A stretch of DNA of 32,000 nt, taken from the NCBI GenBank assembly GCA_021650915.1, contig CP091279.1, forward strand, positions 960,001-992,000, written 5' to 3'. A program made the translations under genes and the position numbers. This DNA comes from Candidatus Brocadia sp. (GTDB lineage Bacteria > Planctomycetota > Brocadiia > Brocadiales > Brocadiaceae). Below are positions 4,214-31,958 of this stretch, in pieces. The notes under the pieces were generated by a model. The model had not been told where the DNA came from, ran no database searches, and was given only the letters and a program-made list of their open reading frames with translations. Every line of letters starts with the position of its first letter. The stretch's first letter is position 1.

Positions 4214-5886
4214 TGAAGCAACAGCTCATATGCGTAATGTTTTTCATTTCCTTGTTTCTGTATTTCAAGGCAACGTTAGCTGATCCGGAAAGGCCGGGGC
4301 GCCTGCCTTCCGTTTTTCACGAACCTTCTCACAAAAATTTATTGTGTTCAAATGACTCTCCACCAGGGACGCTTAAGGATTGGCTCGTCAGCAGAAACGC
4401 GAAAATGAGTTCTGCAACGGCTTTCACCCTGCCGGTACTGGACAAGCAGGTTTCAGGAGATGCCGTTCCGGAAACGGTGCCTCCCATCCTGAGTGAACAA
4501 TCCCAGGTATGCATTTTGTGTCACAGAAATATCACTCCTGGCATCGTAGAAGACTGGCTTACCAGCAGGCATGCAAAAACAACCCCTGCGATGGCTCTCA
4601 CAAAACCCGTGCTGGAGCGGCGGGTTTCAAGCGATACTATTCCGGAAAACTTCAGGTCTGTGGTAGTTGGCTGCTTTGAATGCCACGGACAGAATGCTTC
4701 AGCCCATAAGGATAACTTTGAGCACTTTGGATTCCGGATCAATGTGATTGTTTCACCCAATGACTGCCGGACCTGCCACGTAGTGGAGGCTAATCAATTT
4801 GCCATGAGCAAAAAGGCCCATGCACTGGATAATCTTCAAAAGAATCCCCTGTATCACACCATGGTTGAAACAGGCCTCAGTGCAAAAGGAAGCAGCGACG
4901 GCGCCGTCATTTCCATTACGGCATCAGAAAATTCCAAGGCGGAAAGTTGTTACGGCTGTCATGGCACTGAGGTTACGGTAAAGGGCATGAAGACGATATC
5001 GACCAGCCTTGGAGATATAGATGTTCCAGACCTTGCCAACTGGCCGAATCAGGGGGTAGGAAGGATAAATCCCGACGGGAGTTCCGGGGCGTGCACGGCG
5101 TGTCATCCACGGCATAGTTTTTCCATTGAGATAGCGAGAAAACCATTTACCTGTTCCCAGTGCCATCTCGAACCGGACACGCCGGCATTTGAAGTTTACG
5201 AAGAGAGCAAGCACGGCAATATTTTTAATTCGAAACAGCATGAATGGAACTGGAACAACGTCCCGTGGAGGATCGGAAAGGATTTTCAAGCCCCCACCTG
5301 CGCCACGTGTCACAATAGTCTCATTACCACTTCTGACGGCAGGGTTGTTGCCCAAAGAACCCATGATTTCGGCTCAAGAATGTGGGTGAGGTTGTTTGGG
5401 CTTCCGTACTCCCATCCGCAGCCAAAGAGCGGTCGTACCTATGAAGTCAAGAACAAGGACGGCCTGCCTCTCCCGGTGACATTGAACGGCGAAATAGCTT
5501 CCGAATATCTTATCAGCAACGAGGAACAGACGCGGCGTCAAAATGAAATGAAAACGATATGCCGCAGTTGCCATAATACCGACTGGATCAACGGGCATTT
5601 TGCGAAAATGGACATCACCATTGCGGAAACAGACAAGGCGGTCCTGGCGGCTACACAACTGCTGCAAAAGGCGTGGGGCACAGGATTGGCAGATCCGTCG
5701 AATCCCTTTGATGAGATGATTGAACACGACTGGATAAAACAGTGGCTTTACTATGCCAACTCGGTGCGGTTTGGTTCTGCTATGGGCGGACATGACTACA
5801 CCACCTTTAAAAATGGCTGGCTGGAGTTGACAGAAAATTTGGGTAAGATGCAGGATTTCATGAAAACCCATACCATATCAAAGTAA
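4210..5886 (+). CDS. Octaheme cytochrome c, hydroxylamine oxidoreductase (HAO)-like, secreted
   Basis: It has eight CxxCH motifs (CILCH, CFECH, CRTCH, CYGCH, CTACH, CSQCH, CATCH, CRSCH) and an N-terminal signal peptide (MMKQQLICVMFFISLFLYFKATLA). CTACHPRHSFSIEIARKPFTCSQCHLEPDTPAFEVYEESKHG resembles the HAO-family core. The start ATG overlaps the ATPase stop (ATGA) and has an AAGGAGAGG RBS. Confidence 0.88.
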   Translation: MMKQQLICVMFFISLFLYFKATLADPERPGRLPSVFHEPSHKNLLCSNDSPPGTLKDWLVSRNAKMSSATAFTLPVLDKQVSGDAVPETVPPILSEQSQVCILCHRNITPGIVEDWLTSRHAKTTPAMALTKPVLERRVSSDTIPENFRSVVVGCFECHGQNASAHKDNFEHFGFRINVIVSPNDCRTCHVVEANQFAMSKKAHALDNLQKNPLYHTMVETGLSAKGSSDGAVISITASENSKAESCYGCHGTEVTVKGMKTISTSLGDIDVPDLANWPNQGVGRINPDGSSGACTACHPRHSFSIEIARKPFTCSQCHLEPDTPAFEVYEESKHGNIFNSKQHEWNWNNVPWRIGKDFQAPTCATCHNSLITTSDGRVVAQRTHDFGSRMWVRLFGLPYSHPQPKSGRTYEVKNKDGLPLPVTLNGEIASEYLISNEEQTRRQNEMKTICRSCHNTDWINGHFAKMDITIAETDKAVLAATQLLQKAWGTGLADPSNPFDEMIEHDWIKQWLYYANSVRFGSAMGGHDYTTFKNGWLELTENLGKMQDFMKTHTISK

Positions 5887-5991: not shown

Positions 5992-6537
5992 ATGTTGAAC
6001 AAGAAGATCTTTGGGATGATTGCATCAGGAGTTTTGTATGTTAGTATCATGACAATCGCAGTTAATTCGGTATACGCTGAGGATGCAACACACAAGCATA
6101 GTGAAAGCGCAATAGCGCCTGCACATCCGACCGTTGAGGAGTTTGTTTGCCCTTCCTGTAAAGAAGTCCGCGTGAGTCCTGTGAAAGGAAAGACCCTTGC
6201 AACAAAATCAATGGTTTGTCCGGATTGTAAAAACGAGGTAGGAGAGTTCTCCGTCCACAATTGTGACAAGTGTGGGAATGATGTGCTGGTATGCGGGATG
6301 TGCGAGAAGGCTGCCGCTGAATTAAAAACGGCTACGATGGAAGGTAAATGCCCAAAATGCAAACTGGTAAGAAGAAGACCCGTAAAAGGAAGGGCGTTGT
6401 TGGCAGGATGGGAAATGAAATGCCCGGATTGTAAGAAGAAGACGCCGGAGATGCTCATTCAACATTGTGATGAATGCGGCGCGGAATTCCTGACATGTCC
6501 CATTTGCCTGAAAGAACAAGGGAAGGCAAAAAAATAA
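5992..6537 (+). CDS. Secreted cysteine-rich protein, two tandem modules of four CxxC pairs each (zinc-ribbon/rubredoxin-like), function unknown
   Basis: A signal peptide ends in VYA|ED. Module 1 is CPSCK..VSPVKGK..CPDCK..HNCDKCG..LVCGMC and module 2 is CPKCK..RRPVKGR..CPDCK..QHCDECG..LTCPIC. It has a strong RBS and its own promoter. Confidence 0.7.
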   Translation: MLNKKIFGMIASGVLYVSIMTIAVNSVYAEDATHKHSESAIAPAHPTVEEFVCPSCKEVRVSPVKGKTLATKSMVCPDCKNEVGEFSVHNCDKCGNDVLVCGMCEKAAAELKTATMEGKCPKCKLVRRRPVKGRALLAGWEMKCPDCKKKTPEMLIQHCDECGAEFLTCPICLKEQGKAKK

Positions 6538-6570
6538 GGCGAATAATCGCTCTTGATCAAACATTCGTTG

Positions 6571-6606
6571 GGTAGGGTGGATTAAACAAAGATAATCCGC
6601 CCTACC
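6571..6606. terminator. Hairpin between convergent genes (possible bidirectional terminator)
   Basis: GGTAGGGTGGATTA-aacaaaga-TAATCCGCCCTACC forms a 14-bp stem with one G.U pair. It lies between the stop at 6537 (+) and the stop at 6667 (-). The flanks are only modestly U-rich. Confidence 0.5.
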
Positions 6607-9272: not shown

Positions 9273-10430
9273 CTATAAAAACTCTGTCATTACCGTATCG
9301 GCAACAAACAAGCCTTTTTCGGTGAGTTTGAGCCGTTCGTCTTCAAACGCAACTAATCCATGCGCTCGCAGCCGGTTTATCTGATCGCCAAATTGATCTT
9401 CTAATGCGTAACCGAACCGTTTGTAAAAAACAGCATTTGAAATACCCTGACGCAGCCGCAGGGACATAATAACGGTCTCAGATGCTAACCGGTCTGGCGG
9501 TAAACACTCACCGAATAGTTTTATGCTGGTATTCTCCTGGATTCTCTGAATATACTTCAATACATCTTTTTCGTTGGCAGTTCGCATGCCATGAAGAAAT
9601 GAATGTGCACCAGTTCCGACTCCTACATACTCCCTGTTCTCCCAATAAACCCGGTTGTGGCAGCACTCGTATCCATCCCGTGCAAAATTTGAAATTTCGT
9701 AGTGGTGATAGCGGTTTCTTGTCAGATAGTCAATGGCCATCTTATACATTTCCAGTTCAACACATTCTTCCAGTTTATCGACAACCGCATTCTTCAAATC
9801 AACCGCAAGCGGCGTCCCCTCTTCATAGGTGAGGGAATACGCAGAGAGATGCTCCGGGTTCAGTTCAACAGCCGTTCTTAGGTCTCTTTCCCAGTCATCG
9901 GGCGTTTGTTCCGGACAACCAAAGATCAGATCAATATTCACATTCTGAAAACCGTTTTTTCTCAATAATGCGAAGGCGTCTCGTGCATCATCACCGGAAT
10001 GAATGCGCCCAAGGAGTTCTAATTGCTTATTCTGAAATGACTGGACGCCTAAGCTGATACGGTTCACTCTGTATCCCTTTAACAATTCAACTTTATTTTT
10101 TGTCAGGGTACCCGGGTTTACTTCAACGGTATATTCCCGAATTTCCGAAGCGGGAATGCACCGGATTATGCAGGAAAGTAATTTTTCCAACTGGGATTCC
10201 TTCAGTACGCTGGGTGTTCCACCGCCGATATAAACCGTTTGAAAAAGATATTCCCCTGGTAACAGAGCCAACTCTTTTTCAAGGGCGTGCAGATAACGGT
10301 CAATCATCCCCGTGTCCGATACCATGGAATGGAAATCGCAGTAATTGCACTTTCTTGCACAAAACGGGACGTGTATATAAAGGGCGTGAGGAGCTATATC
10401 GATTTTTTCTGTCATCCTGAAACTGTACAT
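9273..10430 (-). CDS. hemW: Radical SAM HemN-family protein, HemW-like heme chaperone / coproporphyrinogen III oxidase-like
   Basis: It has the CxxxCxxC radical SAM motif HVPFCARKCNYCDF, the motif GGGTPS, and a 385-aa length typical of HemW. Confidence 0.85.
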   Translation of the reverse strand: MYSFRMTEKIDIAPHALYIHVPFCARKCNYCDFHSMVSDTGMIDRYLHALEKELALLPGEYLFQTVYIGGGTPSVLKESQLEKLLSCIIRCIPASEIREYTVEVNPGTLTKNKVELLKGYRVNRISLGVQSFQNKQLELLGRIHSGDDARDAFALLRKNGFQNVNIDLIFGCPEQTPDDWERDLRTAVELNPEHLSAYSLTYEEGTPLAVDLKNAVVDKLEECVELEMYKMAIDYLTRNRYHHYEISNFARDGYECCHNRVYWENREYVGVGTGAHSFLHGMRTANEKDVLKYIQRIQENTSIKLFGECLPPDRLASETVIMSLRLRQGISNAVFYKRFGYALEDQFGDQINRLRAHGLVAFEDERLKLTEKGLFVADTVMTEFL

Positions 10431-11443: not shown

Positions 11444-13288
11444 ATGAGGGACGCACACGGCAATACCGAGATTGTTTCTGGGGTTTTACACCGGGAACCC
11501 TTTTTCGTAAAAATATTTTCCAAATACCGTATTCGGGGTATTCTTTTGAGAGTAAAAGTCGCTAAAACTGCCGGATTTTGCATGGGTGTACGGAGGGCAA
11601 TGGACATCCTTCTTGACGCCGCAAATGAGAAAAATGATGACGGTAATGTCTTTACTGATGGGCCGCTGATTCATAATCCTCAGGTGCTTGAATATCTGGA
11701 AAAGCGGGGTATTCAGGTCGTTAAAGGGCAGACAGACCTTTCGAAAAGCACCGTCGTGATACGGGCGCATGGCGTTACCCCGACACGGAGAAAAGAGATC
11801 GAAAGCACGGGGGCAAAGGTGTGTGACGCTACGTGTCCCCATGTGATGAGGGTTCAGTCCATTATTAAAAAATATGCAGCCCAGGGATACTCAACGGTAA
11901 TTGTGGGTGACAAAGGGCACGCTGAGGTTATCGGCCTCCTGGGATATGCCGAAGGGAAAGGGTACGTGGTGCAGGAACTGGATGAGATCGAACACCTGCC
12001 TCCGATGGACAAGGTGTGTATCGTAGCACAAACGACCCAGGACAGACGTATGTTTAAGGAGGCGATAGAAAGGCTGAAAAAGCGCTATGCAAACTGTGAA
12101 TCATTTGAAACAATCTGCAGTTCCACGTACAAACGCCAGGACGAAATCATCAGTCTGAGCAAAACAGTCGACGCGATGATTGTCGTTGGCGGAAGAGGAA
12201 GCGCCAATACCACGCGGCTGGTGAAGATATGCGAGTCACAGGGAACGCCCACCTTCCTCGTCGAAACCGATGCAGAACTGGATCTTGAGAAGCTGAAAGA
12301 TTACGATACCGTCGGGGTAACGGCAGGAGCTTCCACCCCAAACTGGATGATCAAGCGGGTAGTTGAAAAAGTGCATTCCTTTAAACTCAGCCGGTACCGG
12401 CGGTTTTTATATGGCATGAGGGGTATTGCGAGTTATTTTATACGGAGCTGCACCTATGCGGGGCTCGGAGCGGCAAGTCTCAGTTATGCGAGCGCGGTAT
12501 TACTGGGCATTCGCCCTCGTATCAGTTTTTGCCTGATCGCTGCGTTATTCATCTTCTCTATGCAAGTCCTGAATCGTTTTTCCAATAAAGAGGCGATCGC
12601 ACTGAACGAACCTTCCGGTGCAAAATTTTACGAGAAGAAACAAGCCCTTTTTATCTGTCTTGGTATTGCCGGCGTGGTGGCGTCTTTTGCTCTTGGATTT
12701 GTGCTCAACAAATCGATCTTTTTCTGCACCTTTCTCGCCGGACTTATTGGTATTTTTTATCGGCTGGAAATTATCCCCAGGAGCTTATCGAGAATCATCC
12801 GGTACCGAAGCCTTGAACAAATCCCTGGTTCAAAAGAGATCTTTTACAGCCTCGCATGGGCGGTGAGCACGACGTTAATACCTTTTCTTGGAGCAAAACA
12901 GAGTTTTACGCCCTCGCTCGTTATTGCCTCGGCCTTTGCCTTTAGCCTTGCGTTTATCAGGGCAGTAGTCCTTAATATACGGGATATCCAGGGCGACCGT
13001 ATCCTGGGGAAGGAAACCATTCCTATCGCAATCGGCAAGGAACGCACCAAGACGATTCTCATTATCATCACGGCGCTTGTCGCTGTTTTAATGTCAGCAA
13101 GCCCGTGGCTTGGTTGGACAACGAGTCTGGGGTATTGTTTACTCCCCTGTGTGGCCTATGCCTCCGGCTATCAATATCTGTTTCAGAAACGAATTGTTTC
13201 TGAAGGACTCTTATCCGAAACGATTACCGATTTTAACTTTATCCTGGCCGGTATTATAGCCTTTGTATGGAAATCAAACCACTTTTAA
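11444..13288 (+). CDS. ispH: IspH (4-hydroxy-3-methylbut-2-enyl diphosphate reductase) fused to a C-terminal UbiA-like polytopic membrane domain
   Basis: The N-terminal ~310 aa match IspH/LytB (GFCMGVRRA, DATCPHV, CSSTYKRQ for the three cluster cysteines, plus VVGGRGSANTTRL). The C-terminal ~300 aa have about 8 hydrophobic helices and the UbiA-type motif NIRDIQGDRILGKETIPIAIG. The true start may be TTG 11546 (LRVKVAKTAGFC) because ATG 11444 has its GGA directly abutting the ATG. Confidence 0.85.
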   Translation: MRDAHGNTEIVSGVLHREPFFVKIFSKYRIRGILLRVKVAKTAGFCMGVRRAMDILLDAANEKNDDGNVFTDGPLIHNPQVLEYLEKRGIQVVKGQTDLSKSTVVIRAHGVTPTRRKEIESTGAKVCDATCPHVMRVQSIIKKYAAQGYSTVIVGDKGHAEVIGLLGYAEGKGYVVQELDEIEHLPPMDKVCIVAQTTQDRRMFKEAIERLKKRYANCESFETICSSTYKRQDEIISLSKTVDAMIVVGGRGSANTTRLVKICESQGTPTFLVETDAELDLEKLKDYDTVGVTAGASTPNWMIKRVVEKVHSFKLSRYRRFLYGMRGIASYFIRSCTYAGLGAASLSYASAVLLGIRPRISFCLIAALFIFSMQVLNRFSNKEAIALNEPSGAKFYEKKQALFICLGIAGVVASFALGFVLNKSIFFCTFLAGLIGIFYRLEIIPRSLSRIIRYRSLEQIPGSKEIFYSLAWAVSTTLIPFLGAKQSFTPSLVIASAFAFSLAFIRAVVLNIRDIQGDRILGKETIPIAIGKERTKTILIIITALVAVLMSASPWLGWTTSLGYCLLPCVAYASGYQYLFQKRIVSEGLLSETITDFNFILAGIIAFVWKSNHF

Positions 13289-14044: not shown

Positions 14045-14141
14045 GGGAGTGCATGTCGGCTGGTGTCGGCGACGGACTTCAAATCCGGTCTGTCCCGCTT
14101 CTAGCGGGATAGGTGGGTTCGATTCCCACACGCTCCCGCCA
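14045..14141 (+). tRNA. selC: tRNA-Sec (selenocysteine, anticodon UCA)
   Basis: The sequence is GGGAGTGCATGTCGGCTGGTGTCGGCGACGGACTTCAAATCCGGTCTGTCCCGCTTCTAGCGGGATAGGTGGGTTCGATTCCCACACGCTCCCGCCA. The anticodon loop is CTTCAAA. The long variable arm is TCCCGC/GCGGGA. The T arm is GTGGG-TTCGATT-CCCAC (5 bp). The acceptor stem is extended (7 bp plus one C-A), the D stem is 6 bp with a 4-nt loop, and G73-CCA is encoded. Confidence 0.85.
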
Positions 14142-22577: not shown

Positions 22578-28692
<6,115 letters not shown>

Positions 28693-28875: not shown

Positions 28876-29163
28876 TTAAACAATCAAAGGCCCGTCCTGT
28901 TCAACAGACGGTTTTGCGCCAACGTGCTCCACACGATGCTTATAGTTGGCGCCAAGGTAATAAAATCTCAGGCTGTCTTTCTCGGGGTCAATCTCTGAAA
29001 TCAATCTCGCCTTCAGCATTGTCCACTGAGCAGGATCAACAATGCACTCAAACACCGAATACTGCACCCGCTGTCCGTAATCCTTACATGCGCGGGCAAC
29101 CCTTCGCAGGCGGCGCTGTCCGGTATCATCAGATGCAACATCATAGCTTATAAGCACAAGCAT
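28876..29163 (-). CDS. cas2: CRISPR-associated endoribonuclease Cas2
   Basis: [42 protein letters not shown] is the canonical Cas2 N-terminus. The RBS AGGAGTGAAT precedes ATG 29163; the ORF-track start 29208 adds an implausible extension. Confidence 0.92.
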
Positions 29164-29186
29164 ATTCACTCCTAACTCAGGCAAAA

Positions 29187-29217
29187 AGATACAAAGGCTC
29201 AGAGGCACAAAGTTTAA
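29187..29217. repeat. Left arm of the inverted repeat bounding the four-helix-bundle gene
   Basis: AGATACAAAGGCTCAGAGGCACAAAGTTTAA matches the reverse complement of 29641-29670 (AGAGACAAAGGCACAAAGGCACAAAGTTAA) at about 25/28 positions plus a 1-nt indel. Confidence 0.75.
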
Positions 29218-29259
29218 TCAAATATACAAATCCATAAGCTCCTCATCTTCCATTTGTTA

Positions 29260-29625
29260 CTATGTACCTAAGCAATTTCCTACTTTTTTGATTAAACTAC
29301 TGAGCATTCTTTCTATCTCCCTACTCTGTTCATAAATCTTTTCAAAATGTTCTTTTGATAAATACCCTAAATTTAAACAAATCTCCAATTGAGTTTGCAA
29401 TTCATATAAAGAGCCAATTGCTATCTGTAAAAAACGAACATAATCATTTGTAGAATATCTGCCATATCCTTCTGCAATATTACTTGGTATTGATACCGCA
29501 CTTCTTCTTATTTGCGATACCAATCCATAGAGTTCTTCTTTCGGGAGCAATCTTGTTATTGAATAAACATTAGTTACCAACACCATTGATTTTTGCCATA
29601 CAACGAGATCCCTATAGTGTCTCAT
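29260..29625 (-). CDS. Four-helix-bundle protein (23S rRNA intervening-sequence protein / Avd-like family)
   Basis: YRDLVVWQKSMVLVTNVYSITRLLPKEELYGLVSQIRRSAVSIPSNIAEGYGRYSTNDYVRFLQIAIGSLYELQTQL is the textbook pattern of this family (PF05635/TIGR02436, recalled from memory). Confidence 0.85.
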   Translation of the reverse strand: MRHYRDLVVWQKSMVLVTNVYSITRLLPKEELYGLVSQIRRSAVSIPSNIAEGYGRYSTNDYVRFLQIAIGSLYELQTQLEICLNLGYLSKEHFEKIYEQSREIERMLSSLIKKVGNCLGT

Positions 29626-29640
29626 TTTGATTGTCCCTTC

Positions 29641-29670
29641 TTAACTTTGTGCCTTTGTGCCTTTGTCTCT
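29641..29670. repeat. Right arm of the inverted repeat bounding the four-helix-bundle gene
   Basis: TTAACTTTGTGCCTTTGTGCCTTTGTCTCT lies between the cas1 stop (29679) and the start of the four-helix-bundle gene. It contains the internal tandem TGCCTTTG x2. Confidence 0.75.
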
Positions 29671-29678
29671 ATTAATTA

Positions 29679-30710
29679 TCACTTCCATAGAAAAGGCGGG
29701 TAATTGTCCATATCTCCGCGTAAATAACGGGCCATGAGTAATGCCTGTATATGAAAGAGCAGCCCCACAGTTACTTTCTCATTCAAAAACGGATGCAGTA
29801 TCTCTTCCTGCTTTCTCTTCTGGTAGGCCACCAGGACGGCCTTTCTCGTGTCATCATCCATCCACACTGCGCCCGATTCCTTCTTCTGAAACCCTTTCGC
29901 CTGCACCTGGCCGAGATTGATCAGGGAGAGCGTCAATCGGTCTGCAATGAAAGGGCGAAATTCCTCCATCAGGTCAAGCGCCAGGCCATATCTGCCCGGG
30001 CGGTCTCGGTGCAAAAAGCCAACCGCAGGGTCAAGCCCTACGCCCTCAAGCGCGGAACGCACGTCATGCATCAGGAGGGTATACAAAAAAGAGAGCAGGC
30101 AGTTTACCGTATCCAACGGAGGCCTCCTGTTTCTTTCCCGAAAGCGAAAATCGTCTTTCTGTGAAGTAATCAATTGATTAAAGACACCAAAGTATGTGGA
30201 TGCGGACTCCCCTTCTATTCCGCGTGAAATATCCAGTGTCAATTCAGCATTTAGCCGCACGATGTAATGGGCAAGCCTCTGAGAAGCCTTTGAAACCGCA
30301 TCAGCGTCAATCTTATCCGAATGGTCTCGTAATGCGCGCGAAAGCACCGTGCGACAATTTGCTATTTTACCGGTCAATACGGCACGAGCTATTAATGCAG
30401 AGGATTTTGGGTCATCAGCCCTGCGGTACTGCTCGCGCCTCAAAAGCACGTTGCCCGACACCGGGCCCTGCACCTTTGCGAGAAAATCGCCGGTTTCCGT
30501 CAAAAAACTGATTGCCACCTCCTTCTCAGCGCAGAATCCCATTAAGTAAGGGCTGCACGAGACCTGGCCAAAACAGACAATCCCGCCGAGGGTATGAACC
30601 GGGATGGTCAGTTTCACCTCACCCTCAACCTTCACCACCACCGTCTCACCCTCCTTGGCAAGATACGCCCCCTGCGTTGTGACGAATAATGTGTTCAGGT
30701 GTCTTTTCAT
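29679..30710 (-). CDS. cas1: CRISPR-associated integrase Cas1 (type I-C-like)
   Basis: The 343-aa protein starts MKRHLNTLFVTTQGAYLAKEGETVVV and carries GIEGESASTYF...RNRRPPLDTVNCLLSFLYTLL...GFLHRDRPGRYGLALDLMEEFRP (Cas1 catalytic E/H/D region). Confidence 0.95.
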   Translation of the reverse strand: MKRHLNTLFVTTQGAYLAKEGETVVVKVEGEVKLTIPVHTLGGIVCFGQVSCSPYLMGFCAEKEVAISFLTETGDFLAKVQGPVSGNVLLRREQYRRADDPKSSALIARAVLTGKIANCRTVLSRALRDHSDKIDADAVSKASQRLAHYIVRLNAELTLDISRGIEGESASTYFGVFNQLITSQKDDFRFRERNRRPPLDTVNCLLSFLYTLLMHDVRSALEGVGLDPAVGFLHRDRPGRYGLALDLMEEFRPFIADRLTLSLINLGQVQAKGFQKKESGAVWMDDDTRKAVLVAYQKRKQEEILHPFLNEKVTVGLLFHIQALLMARYLRGDMDNYPPFLWK

Positions 30711-31282
30711 TCTTTTGTCCTATTCTTTCTTTTTTCAGATCGTGCCCGGTAGAGCCTTTCTGTGAACCCACCCTCTTTCAGAAAGGTCTTTTCCAATGCC
30801 CGCAACTGCTGGTCGAGCAGGTAGTTTGTCTGGTGAATCAGGCAGATCATGGTGTTTGCCGCCACTTCCGGAGGCGAAGCCTCCAGATAGGTCTTATAAG
30901 TCTCATAAGACCTATTTTTACTATGCGCAAGTTTGCGCACAGCAAGCGCCTGCTCATGCTCTTTTCCCCAGAGAGGCAGCTTGCGCTGCCTCAAATAATC
31001 CTGAAAGTCAAGAAGCAGTTCTTCAAGGCTTGCCCGTGCCACGCCGACAAGCTTTAGTTCGGTTTTTTTAGAAGTGCCTGAAGCCATACTCCCTTCGGCA
31101 ATATTCTGCTTGCCGCTACGCGCCGCCTGCACCATCTGATCGTGGGTGCGGGAACGGCGGTCGATGAATCGGTCGCAGAATACTATTGTAGCATCATAAA
31201 CAATCTCTGACATTTTGTAGGACTGCAGTTCCCGATACCCGCCGTGCGGCGGGATAAGCGGAGATTCTTTATTATCAGTCAT
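30707..31282 (-). CDS. Four-helix-bundle protein with C-terminal suffix domain (23S rRNA IVS / Avd-like family)
   Basis: YRELQSYKMSEIVYDATIVFCDRF...THDQMVQAARSGKQNIAEGSMASGTSKKTELKLVGVARASLEELLLDFQDYLRQ...LLDQQLRALEKTFLKEGGFTERL matches the four-helix-bundle-plus-suffix architecture. ATG 31282 lies inside AATGACTGA, overlapping the cas4 stop, and its stop overlaps the cas1 start (ATGA). The ORF-track start 31303 is also possible. Confidence 0.8.
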   Translation of the reverse strand: MTDNKESPLIPPHGGYRELQSYKMSEIVYDATIVFCDRFIDRRSRTHDQMVQAARSGKQNIAEGSMASGTSKKTELKLVGVARASLEELLLDFQDYLRQRKLPLWGKEHEQALAVRKLAHSKNRSYETYKTYLEASPPEVAANTMICLIHQTNYLLDQQLRALEKTFLKEGGFTERLYRARSEKRKNRTKE

Positions 31283-31958
31283 TTTGTGCCTCCTCTTTTG
31301 CATCAGATGCGGAATCCATCGCCCTCATCAGATAATTACTTACCCTGCTGCTCACCTTCGGCATGCACAGATTTAGCAATGAACAGAGTTTGCACTTCTT
31401 TGAATATTCCGCCTTCGGGGTAATACCGGATGCAATGAGTTCATGCACCTTCCTTGAGGCATTCTCTGTCTCAGTCCGCAATGCTTTATCAAAAACCACA
31501 TCCATACGGCGACGGGTTTTGCCATAAAAAATAGCGCCAGATGGAATATTTCCGCCCAACATTTCTTCAAGGCAAATTCCTTGAGCGCAAAGCTGAATTG
31601 CAAAGCTAAGTTCATGACGAAGATATCCTCTTTTATACTCAACAGGGAACGGCAACCATAAACCGGATACGCCTTCAAGTTTAACTCCGCCTGTTGCCGT
31701 CTTATGAAACTCCACCATATCAGCCTTGCCGATGAGTCCAAGAACGAGGGAACGCAGCCAGACACTACGAGCAATCCGCACACTTCCGCGCACCTCCGAA
31801 GCTGATTCATCATCCACTCGTTCATGAAGGATAGAACCCTCAGCGGTCATTACATTGTCTTCCCAGACGCGCTCAATGAAATGCAATGCTGCACGGCGTT
31901 CGCAAAAAGTGAAATCGGATAGCGCGGAGATGGGGATCAAGTCATCTTCTGAATACAT
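31275..31958 (-). CDS. cas4: CRISPR-associated exonuclease Cas4 (RecB-like, Fe-S)
   Basis: There is an N-terminal Cys (FTFCERRAAL), the RecB motif GKADMVE...EYK, and a C-terminal CKLCSLLNLC (C-x2-C-x5-C). Confidence 0.9.
   Translation of the reverse strand: MYSEDDLIPISALSDFTFCERRAALHFIERVWEDNVMTAEGSILHERVDDESASEVRGSVRIARSVWLRSLVLGLIGKADMVEFHKTATGGVKLEGVSGLWLPFPVEYKRGYLRHELSFAIQLCAQGICLEEMLGGNIPSGAIFYGKTRRRMDVVFDKALRTETENASRKVHELIASGITPKAEYSKKCKLCSLLNLCMPKVSSRVSNYLMRAMDSASDAKEEAQND

Follow-up and report, generated by a model that had tools for sequence, protein, structure and literature searches.

Why does an operon for the acquisition of CRISPR spacers carry two small genes related to the proteins of 23S rRNA intervening sequences (IVSs)? 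The question is raised by a stretch of 32,000 nucleotides from Candidatus Brocadia sp. (GenBank assembly GCA_021650915.1, contig CP091279.1, positions 960,001–992,000), hereafter the window, in which cas4, cas1 and cas2 of a type I-C system are parted by two different genes for four-helix-bundle (4HB) proteins. On the minus strand the order is cas4, the long 4HB gene with its suffix domain (4HBsfx), cas1c, the short 4HB gene, cas2, the leader and a type I-C array. An earlier reading made from the letters of the DNA (the sequence-only reading), whose placing of both genes within the cas4–cas1–cas2 operon in this order is borne out, had left two possibilities, namely an accessory factor for prespacer handling or integration and a selfish cassette that has colonized the operon. 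According to the computational analysis presented here, the inserts are probably two passenger cassettes of the IVS type, independent of each other, the one young and the other old, within a chimeric type I-C adaptation operon. Neither looks like a dedicated Cas protein, and a dedicated role of 4HBsfx in adaptation is unproven.

The case is best documented for the short gene (29260–29625, minus strand). Its product of 121 amino acids is basic (isoelectric point, pI, 8.9) and belongs to the 23S rRNA IVS protein family, with scores of 146 bits on PF05635 (cut-off 33.8; E = 5e-43), 143 bits on TIGR02436 (cut-off 24) and 155 bits on NF008911; it matches the protein of PDB entry 2GSC (phmmer, 4e-26), and its translation holds the R..S...N..E (NIAEG) motif conserved in the family (PMC3936711) as RRSAVSIPSNIAEG. 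The gene lies in a cassette of ~490 nt (29184–29673, minus strand), delimited by an inverted repeat, by composition and by empty sites in other loci. The ends of the cassette form a 31-nt imperfect inverted repeat, 87% complementary, of which the 5′ arm (29643–29673, minus strand) carries tandem GGCACARAG nonamers and the 3′ arm (29184–29214, minus strand) the nonamer complement; five matches to this motif were counted at this spot versus 0.06 expected in the window. The GC content is 31–33% versus ~50% in the neighbours. The 5′ arm is preceded by TAATTAATAG stop codons, immediately 3′ of the cas1 stop, and the 3′ arm is followed by a new Shine–Dalgarno sequence, AGGAGTGAAT, for cas2 (28876–29163, minus strand; 95 amino acids with an ATG start; PF09827, TIGR01573). 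A GTG at 29208 was considered as an alternative start of cas2 and rejected because it falls within the cassette arm.

Comparison with other loci, which are designated by L-numbers, indicates how this cassette arrived. In L011, L019 and L099 the gap between cas1 and cas2 is 9–13 nt and the cassette is absent. The flanks of L099 are 95% (cas1) and 97.6% (cas2) identical in nucleotides to those of the window, Cas2 being 100% identical in amino acids; identity is uniform up to the junction, and there is no co-converted tract at the empty site. Such near-identical flanks without the cassette point to its recent and precise gain in an mRNA spacer. An uninterrupted cas1–cas2 pair thus exists in the closest relative, in which 4HBsfx is retained, and counts against a dedicated role. 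In the pair formed by the window and L090 the cassette open reading frame (ORF) is 96.7% identical versus only 78% for cas1, with a synonymous divergence (pS) of 0.05 versus 0.66, and for the same locus pairs pS ranges from 0.05 to 0.35 in the short gene versus 0.66 to 0.78 in the adjacent cas1. The cassette would therefore have moved between already diverged I-C loci and come to rest at the same junction. Every one of the closest homologues that was looked up, at 86% identity or more, likewise occupies the cas1–cas2 junction. L096 has an 81%-identical copy, again with GGCACARAG arms, in an unrelated operon where its neighbours are yebC and ruvC; this indicates that the mobile unit is the ORF together with its arms and that this unit is not specific to cas genes. 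Altogether, the short cassette has the appearance of a mobile element of the 23S rRNA IVS type that was acquired recently. That it is a passenger of this kind can be held with considerable confidence, and the selfish cassette envisaged earlier describes it well.

The RNA predicted from the cassette agrees with this assignment. Pairing of the arms gives a stem around the entire cassette (z-score −2.8 in the window and −3.8 in L096); this stem is present in both the minimum free energy and the centroid folds and is retained in the consensus fold of six copies, with covariation too sparse to serve as proof. The short cassette therefore has the complementary termini, paired around an ORF, of an IVS element; in place of a helix of 23S rRNA it occupies the spacer between cas1 and cas2, and no rRNA was found in the window. 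No Rfam model covers either cassette or the nonamer arrays, and a scan for promoters and terminators inside the operon gave nothing exceeding shuffled expectation. As a possible course of events, the cassette would have entered horizontally and recently, immediately 3′ of the cas1 stop codon, and would have brought stop codons of its own; with the ribosome-binding site that it supplies in exchange, cas2 would still be translatable. In the transcript the inverted nonamer arms would pair into a stem of ~30 bp that closes off the ORF, and by analogy with rRNA IVSs this stem may be a substrate of RNase III, whose cleavage would separate the cas1 and cas2 messages.

Two side observations concern genes of the short type. 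In L010, from a Brocadia relative, a palindromic element of ~160 nt (~9405–9562) splits the short 4HB ORF, giving a cassette within a cassette. In L146, a divergent I-C locus, a distant short-type 4HB gene (4656–4979; 41% identity) stands between cas4 and cas1 and shows a further independent arrangement.

Membership of this superfamily had suggested a different mechanism, in which both proteins would be partners of a reverse transcriptase (RT), like Avd of diversity-generating retroelements (DGRs), in DGR-type or RT-assisted spacer acquisition. The superfamily is indeed the same, the short protein matches the PHROG family ‘Avd protein of DGR’ (4e-12; the long protein has no PHROG match), and the association UAS-8 connects genes for intervening-sequence proteins (IVPs), in some cases accompanied by an RT, with adaptation modules (PMC10910872). 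The scores of the short protein nevertheless remain under the cut-offs of the Avd models, with 29.5 bits on NF033474 (cut-off 80) and 30.8 bits on PF22296 (bAvd; cut-off 40). Pfam annotation, which covered every called gene of L001 and L002 and the ten largest ORFs in the rest of the window, shows no RT domain, ORFs under ~230 amino acids in 1–22000 being unscanned; DUF2325, the UAS-8 partner, is not among the called genes of the locus; no pair of template and variable repeats (TR/VR) turned up among the annotated genes, no search specific to such repeats having been made; and Cas1 is a plain Cas1c. As far as the annotated genes go, and barring an RT encoded elsewhere in the genome that binds these proteins, the Avd analogy is refuted as a mechanism for this locus.

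The long gene, 4HBsfx (30707–31282, minus strand), requires a more cautious treatment. It encodes a basic protein of 191 amino acids (pI 9.45) that scores 88.5 bits on TIGR04258 (cut-off 40), the suffix domain covering residues 145–193 of the 198-residue ORF, and 29.3 bits on TIGR02436 (cut-off 24); on PF05635 it reaches 27.8 bits, under the gathering score of 33.8. The suffix domain and the membership of both proteins in the IVS/4HB family, as read from the sequence earlier, are therefore upheld, by two models for the short protein and by TIGR02436 for the long one, the translation of which carries the family motif as ARSGKQNIAEG. An AlphaFold2 model (pLDDT 85, pTM 0.78) is all-helical, with a helical hairpin inserted between helices 3 and 4 of the bundle and a C-terminal helix. 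Its best Foldseek matches, with weak E-values of 0.04–0.2, are 2GSC_B (TM 0.77 on the target) and 2RLD, which are the uncharacterized relatives Xcc0516 and BT_0352, each with five chains in its PDB entry. The N-terminal motif LIPPHGGY (residues 9–16; window 31258–31237) is invariant and predicted to be disordered (pLDDT 41–66), and judging from the model could be a docking peptide or short linear motif for a partner protein.

Relatives of 4HBsfx are numerous and widely distributed. A protein search returned more than 8000 of them; the best 120 have 83–93% identity and carry names from Planctomycetota, Nitrospirota and Deltaproteobacteria. When one genome per species was scanned, at least 554 loci emerged, and the neighbourhood counts below come from the best 80 (68–87% identity), which belong to Planctomycetota, Nitrospirota, Desulfobacterota, Acidobacteriota, Verrucomicrobiota, Chloroflexi, Clostridia, Ignavibacteriota and Chlorobi; relatives at 70–93% identity span at least eight phyla. 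Viral contigs yielded no relative of 4HBsfx when queried by a single sequence or by an alignment, for which reason an origin as an anti-CRISPR or phage gene was dropped.

The character of a cassette comes to light in a nucleotide motif within and around 4HBsfx. At 30887–30915 (minus strand) the ORF holds an inverted repeat, a near-perfect palindrome made of three tandem nonamers, AATAGGTCTTAT GAGACTTAT AAGACCTAT, that encode NRSYETYKTY; the consensus is AGGTCYTAT / nnGACYTAT / ARGnCCTAT. Over 81 homologues, which are related and not phylogenetically independent, the Tyr codon of the motif is TAT in 229 of 234 cases versus 263 of 503 elsewhere in the ORFs (Fisher p = 4e-43), its Arg codon is AGG in 73 of 78 versus 184 of 1275 (p = 2e-50), and its variable codon is always nnG while encoding 11 different amino acids. 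The contrast with the saturated sites of the same genes is strong, and on the strength of these codon counts the embedded motif appears to be under selection at the nucleotide level. Just outside the ORF the same nonamers form arrays in 35 of the 81 loci (on both sides in 11), and in the 100 nt next to the ORF ends they are enriched 195-fold; an initial search for flanking inverted repeats had given L074 only, and the wide occurrence of the arrays was revealed by a motif-based scan. The 4HBsfx of the window has no flanking array on either side, and the arrays of the other loci make 4HBsfx, too, a candidate repeat-bounded cassette with a nonamer of its own. Repeats are in this sense specific to subfamilies, the nonamer of 4HBsfx being the counterpart of GGCACARAG in the short gene and of GACAGAT in Coxiella. 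Both proteins are basic, and we infer that each may recognize its own repeat and that the 4HBsfx protein may bind the GWCYTAT nonamers in its own ORF and beside other copies; such binding would account for the near-invariance of protein and motif alike across phyla. GWCYTAT nonamer arrays were also observed away from any 4HBsfx, in L068 (3069–3127), L079 (5–232), L080 (4558–4576 and 10926), L047 and L050, in one setting just after an hsdS gene; these solo arrays may be remnants or independent repeat elements.

What company does 4HBsfx keep? Twenty-nine of the 80 nearest genomic relatives lie in cas loci, of type I-C as well as I-E. The majority of these are I-C loci with the order cas7-4HBsfx-cas4-cas1-cas2, and in three I-E loci 4HBsfx stands directly upstream of cas1; the gene order of the window recurs among the 80 in L014 only, where a 160-residue ORF without a Pfam match (931–1413) was noticed between 4HBsfx and cas1. 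The other 51 loci have neighbours from defence and nuclease systems, comprising type I restriction–modification (R-M) genes (hsdR, hsdS, hsdM), ERCC4-HhH nucleases, UvrD-PD-(D/E)XK proteins and RecQ, and also trpE, SufB, short-chain dehydrogenases, HlyD, two-component systems and TPR proteins. For the non-CRISPR copies, 92 Pfam families were counted among 82 immediate neighbours and 173 among 127 next neighbours, and the copies in type I R-M and housekeeping operons are as conserved as the cas-linked ones. The enrichment near cas4 and cas1 that was looked for does exist, with 29 of the 80 in cas loci; it is offset by these equally conserved copies elsewhere and by modules that do without the gene. 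Among 61 metagenomic I-C-like loci sampled independently on the basis of Cas4 similarity, eight have 4HBsfx beside cas4, four times before and four times after it, in Cas4 lineages of 40–94% identity. The statement that cas4, cas1 and cas2 are contiguous in I-C loci is accordingly true of most of them.

The coupling of 4HBsfx to its neighbours is as tight as originally described. On reading the sequence, the cas4 stop and the 4HBsfx start overlap by 8 nt, ATGACTGA, a GAGGAGG Shine–Dalgarno sequence precedes this start, and the 4HBsfx stop overlaps the cas1 start by 4 nt, ATGA. The argument that overlapping codons speak for a role in acquisition is nevertheless weak, because overlaps of 4 nt are equally seen between relatives of 4HBsfx and hsdR or further unrelated genes.

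A history of recombination offers an explanation for this coupling. When the window is compared with loci that match it at 74–93% in 4HBsfx, Cas1 and Cas2, identity is 21–46% for Cas3, Cas5, Cas8c and Cas7. Its Cas4 (31275–31958, minus strand; 227 amino acids; PF01930, E = 1.6e-17; TIGR00372) is 44–59% identical to the Cas4 of loci with a Cas1 74–86% identical to that of the window (29679–30710, minus strand; 343 amino acids; TIGR03640, 528.8 bits, cut-off 385); with Cas4 of L099 it shares 94%. Judged by these values, cas4 of the window appears to come from a different lineage than cas4 of most loci that share its 4HBsfx, cas1 and cas2. Recombination at the joint between effector and adaptation genes is apparently common. 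Modules L093, L094 and L095 are 98–99% identical from the start of cas4 onward, and upstream of this shared part L093 has 4HBsfx, L094 another gene and L095 cas7; hence near-identical adaptation modules can have or lack 4HBsfx. In L011 (Ca. Brocadia sp. DTUAMX2) 4HBsfx (6001–6573) has an in-frame stop near codon 74 and is probably a pseudogene. Between the window (30707–31282) and L099 (4677–5249), 4HBsfx is 86.5% identical in nucleotides versus 94–95% for the flanking cas4 and cas1, and this excess divergence suggests an exchange of alleles with other copies.

In the scenario that follows, 4HBsfx would be an old resident at the effector/adaptation recombination joint of a widely transferred I-C lineage. 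An ancestral cas7-4HBsfx-cas4-cas1-cas2 locus would have recombined with a different I-C locus supplying cas3 through cas4, so that a foreign cas3-cas5-cas8c-cas7-cas4 block became joined to 4HBsfx-cas1-cas2. The original downstream cas4 and both flanking repeat arrays would have been lost, a loss that would have left 4HBsfx translationally coupled on both sides. More generally, each cassette would consist of a small ORF for a basic protein bounded by short tandem-repeat arrays specific to its subfamily, would settle at intergenic junctions of operons and would be transcribed there as a passenger; any effect on spacer acquisition would be indirect, by way of operon expression or RNA processing. 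For 4HBsfx taken by itself, the evidence leans towards such a passenger cassette.

The strongest competitor is that 4HBsfx is a genuine adaptation accessory, a nucleic-acid-binding oligomer that works with Cas4 and/or Cas1–Cas2 in prespacer handling or integration and is co-translated with them. Several results weigh against the passenger reading and are to be set beside it at this point. In a neighbour-joining (NJ) tree without support values, the CRISPR-linked 4HBsfx copies form one broad clade in which the I-E copies are nested, the R-M-linked and ERCC4-linked copies being placed elsewhere in this tree. The cas-linked copies adjoin adaptation genes, namely cas4 in I-C and, directly upstream, cas1 in I-E and in the window, and in the Cas4-sampled loci 4HBsfx occurs on both sides of cas4, across several divergent Cas4 lineages. 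Purifying selection is strong, with a ratio of non-synonymous to synonymous divergence (pN/pS) of 0.20 versus 0.25 for cas1 and 0.32 for cas4 in the same loci; together with saturated synonymous sites (mean pS 0.73) and a GC content that follows the neighbouring genes, this means that 4HBsfx is not a decaying recent insert. The clade, the adjacency and the purifying selection would fit a selected function in cas loci. To these are added two features of the short insertion, at which no target-site duplication was recognized and in which no mobilizing enzyme is encoded, and the circumstance that RNase III cleavage and protein–nonamer binding are steps we infer.

The accessory role can further invoke the overlapping codons with their strong Shine–Dalgarno sequence, the basic protein with its invariant and predicted-disordered LIPPHGGY, reminiscent of a docking peptide, the frequent presence of PD-(D/E)XK-type nucleases or helicases (HsdR, UvrD-PDDEXK, ERCC4) among the other neighbours, and the co-occurrence with Cas4 and Cas6 noted by Zhang et al. 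(PMC3936711). Against it stands the way in which conservation is distributed. 4HBsfx remains 74–87% identical where Cas4 is 40–49% and Cas1 50–56% identical, and so does not co-vary with any Cas partner; in a mirror-tree comparison the distance correlation is 0.54 for 4HBsfx and Cas1 versus 0.83 for Cas1 and Cas2, the range of 4HBsfx distances being narrow. Besides its equally conserved copies in housekeeping operons, the gene is dispensable in near-identical modules, decayed in L011 and absent from most I-C loci, and it has no match in PADLOC. An accessory of the adaptation machinery is on balance an unlikely identity for 4HBsfx, and the passenger cassette is preferred.

The adaptation operon of this I-C lineage appears, from the loci compared, to be a hot spot for small passenger genes. 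A RhuM-family gene stands between cas4 and cas1 in L010 (7689–8084), L090 (1852–2898) and L092–L095, a RhuM–Fic fusion is present in L023 (6719–7699), and Bro-N genes are the immediate upstream neighbours of 4HBsfx in loci of both types, I-C and I-E (L020, L021, L029 and L038). In L093 a gene for a Y1 (IS200/IS605-type) transposase (4791–5159) was seen just downstream of cas2. Genes embedded in type I R-M operons have been described as regulators, or as back-up effectors when the host system is inhibited. Both 4HB genes could be generic small passenger or guard genes of this sort, keeping company with RhuM, Fic/DOC and Bro-N in defence operons, an idea to which the genes just listed and the joint occurrence of Fic, HsdM/S/R and 4HBsfx in L033 and L070 lend some substance. 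About half of the 4HBsfx relatives and the short cassette of L096 are nevertheless in non-defence operons, PADLOC recognizes neither protein and neither has an enzymatic domain, which leaves a guard function quite improbable. The preferred reading, that of two IVS-type passenger cassettes, can also be extended into a bolder and rather doubtful proposal. IVS-family 4HB proteins with their cognate arrays might form a widespread and undescribed class of operon-invading cassettes. In these an oligomeric protein would recognize its own 9-nt arrays, including for the suffix-domain subfamily the copy within its ORF with synonymous sites conserved across phyla, and would thereby control RNA processing or movement, and the CRISPR-linked suffix clade might have been domesticated at the I-C/I-E effector/adaptation joint, where it would tune the expression of cas4-cas1-cas2 or act in acquisition.

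The remainder of the locus is that of an ordinary type I-C system. The assignment relies on Cas1c, Cas4 and Cas2, on the genes cas3-cas5c-cas8c(csd1)-cas7 of contigs L001 and L002 and on the repeat. The same gene order and the 191-residue start of 4HBsfx were called independently on 20 public contigs with identical Cas1, all with cas3-cas5c-cas8c-cas7 upstream. The array (22609–28625, minus strand) has ~90 copies of a 32-nt repeat typical of I-C, GTCGCTCCCCGCGCGGGAGCGTGGATTGAAAC as read on the cas strand, with ATTGAAAC as its 3′ end. It includes a perfect duplication of 300 nt (26300–26599 = 26891–27190, ~4.5 repeat–spacer units), which indicates a recent internal rearrangement. Elsewhere in the window, a tRNA-Sec gene was found at 14045–14137 (Rfam RF01852, 67 bits), and a single ORF at 11444–13288 fuses LytB/IspH (PF02401) to a UbiA prenyltransferase domain.

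Why do two passengers of one operon matter? The spread of IVS elements with their S23p/4HB proteins and the function of these proteins are questions standing since 1993, and the family is among the most abundant uncharacterized small-protein families in several phyla. The filled and empty sites within near-identical flanks show that an IVS-type cassette was recently and precisely inserted into an mRNA spacer, and the nonamer arrays together with the 30-nt motif of the ORF provide a candidate recognition element for the proteins. For the mining of CRISPR neighbourhoods the locus carries a caution, since a gene enriched near cas4 and cas1, translationally coupled and highly conserved, may still be a promiscuous passenger. 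Should the suffix-domain protein have a part in adaptation after all, about one in seven of the sampled I-C loci would possess a new host factor.

Among known systems, the IVS elements of 23S rRNA with an S23p ORF, described in Leptospira and Coxiella (Ralph & McClelland 1993; Warrier et al. 2016, PMC4990558), are the closest to the short cassette. The Coxiella IVS has 428 nt, an S23p ORF, tandem heptamers upstream of this ORF and a GC content below that of the host, and is cut by RNase III at the first repeat (PMC4990558). The short cassette resembles it in ORF family (146 bits on PF05635), in size (~490 nt versus 428 nt), in complementary ends with a stem enclosing the ORF, in low GC, in evidence of horizontal acquisition and in the short tandem repeats of its 5′ arm, nonamers here and heptamers in Coxiella. 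It differs in lying between protein-coding genes (cas1 and cas2, or yebC and ruvC in L096) in place of a 23S helix, in an intact ORF subject to purifying selection, that of Coxiella being in decay, and in an excision by RNase III that is predicted only, by analogy.

Repetitive extragenic palindromic (REP) and miniature inverted-repeat transposable element (MITE)-like repeats are short palindromic units at gene boundaries. The extra nonamer copies scattered in L068, L079 and L080 recall them; unlike such repeats, the nonamers travel with a small non-enzymatic ORF, occur also inside its coding sequence and have no linked transposase. With Avd the two proteins share the superfamily and a basic character, and the solved relatives 2GSC and 2RLD have five chains each; they are set apart from it by scores under the model cut-offs, by the lack of an RT or TR/VR pair among the annotated genes and by the lack of evidence of retro-homing.

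Finally, IVP-family genes have been met in CRISPR loci before. UAS-8 of Altae-Tran et al. (Science 2023, PMC10910872) consists of a 23S rRNA IVP with DUF2325 and sometimes an RT, and is acquisition-linked (18 / 22.0). The association of an IVP-family gene with acquisition genes is common to UAS-8 and the present locus; the UAS-8 example is cyanobacterial (GCF_002075285.3), with DUF2325 and with or without an RT, neither of which is found in the annotated genes here. Zhang, Doak & Ye (NAR 2014, PMC3936711) reported 18 23S_rRNA_IVP genes within cas loci of types I-B, I-E, II-A and III-B, often co-occurring with Cas4 and/or Cas6. The IVP-family genes between the cas genes of the window are the same phenomenon, and the two inserts are a new instance of what was reported in 2014. 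Type I-C is not in that list, the suffix-domain subfamily was not separated there, and cassette termini, mobility and an embedded nucleotide motif were not described; likewise, a literature search found nothing on the suffix-domain family or on cassette termini. What the present locus adds to these known systems is the architecture of repeat arrays and the ORF-embedded motif apparently under nucleotide-level selection.

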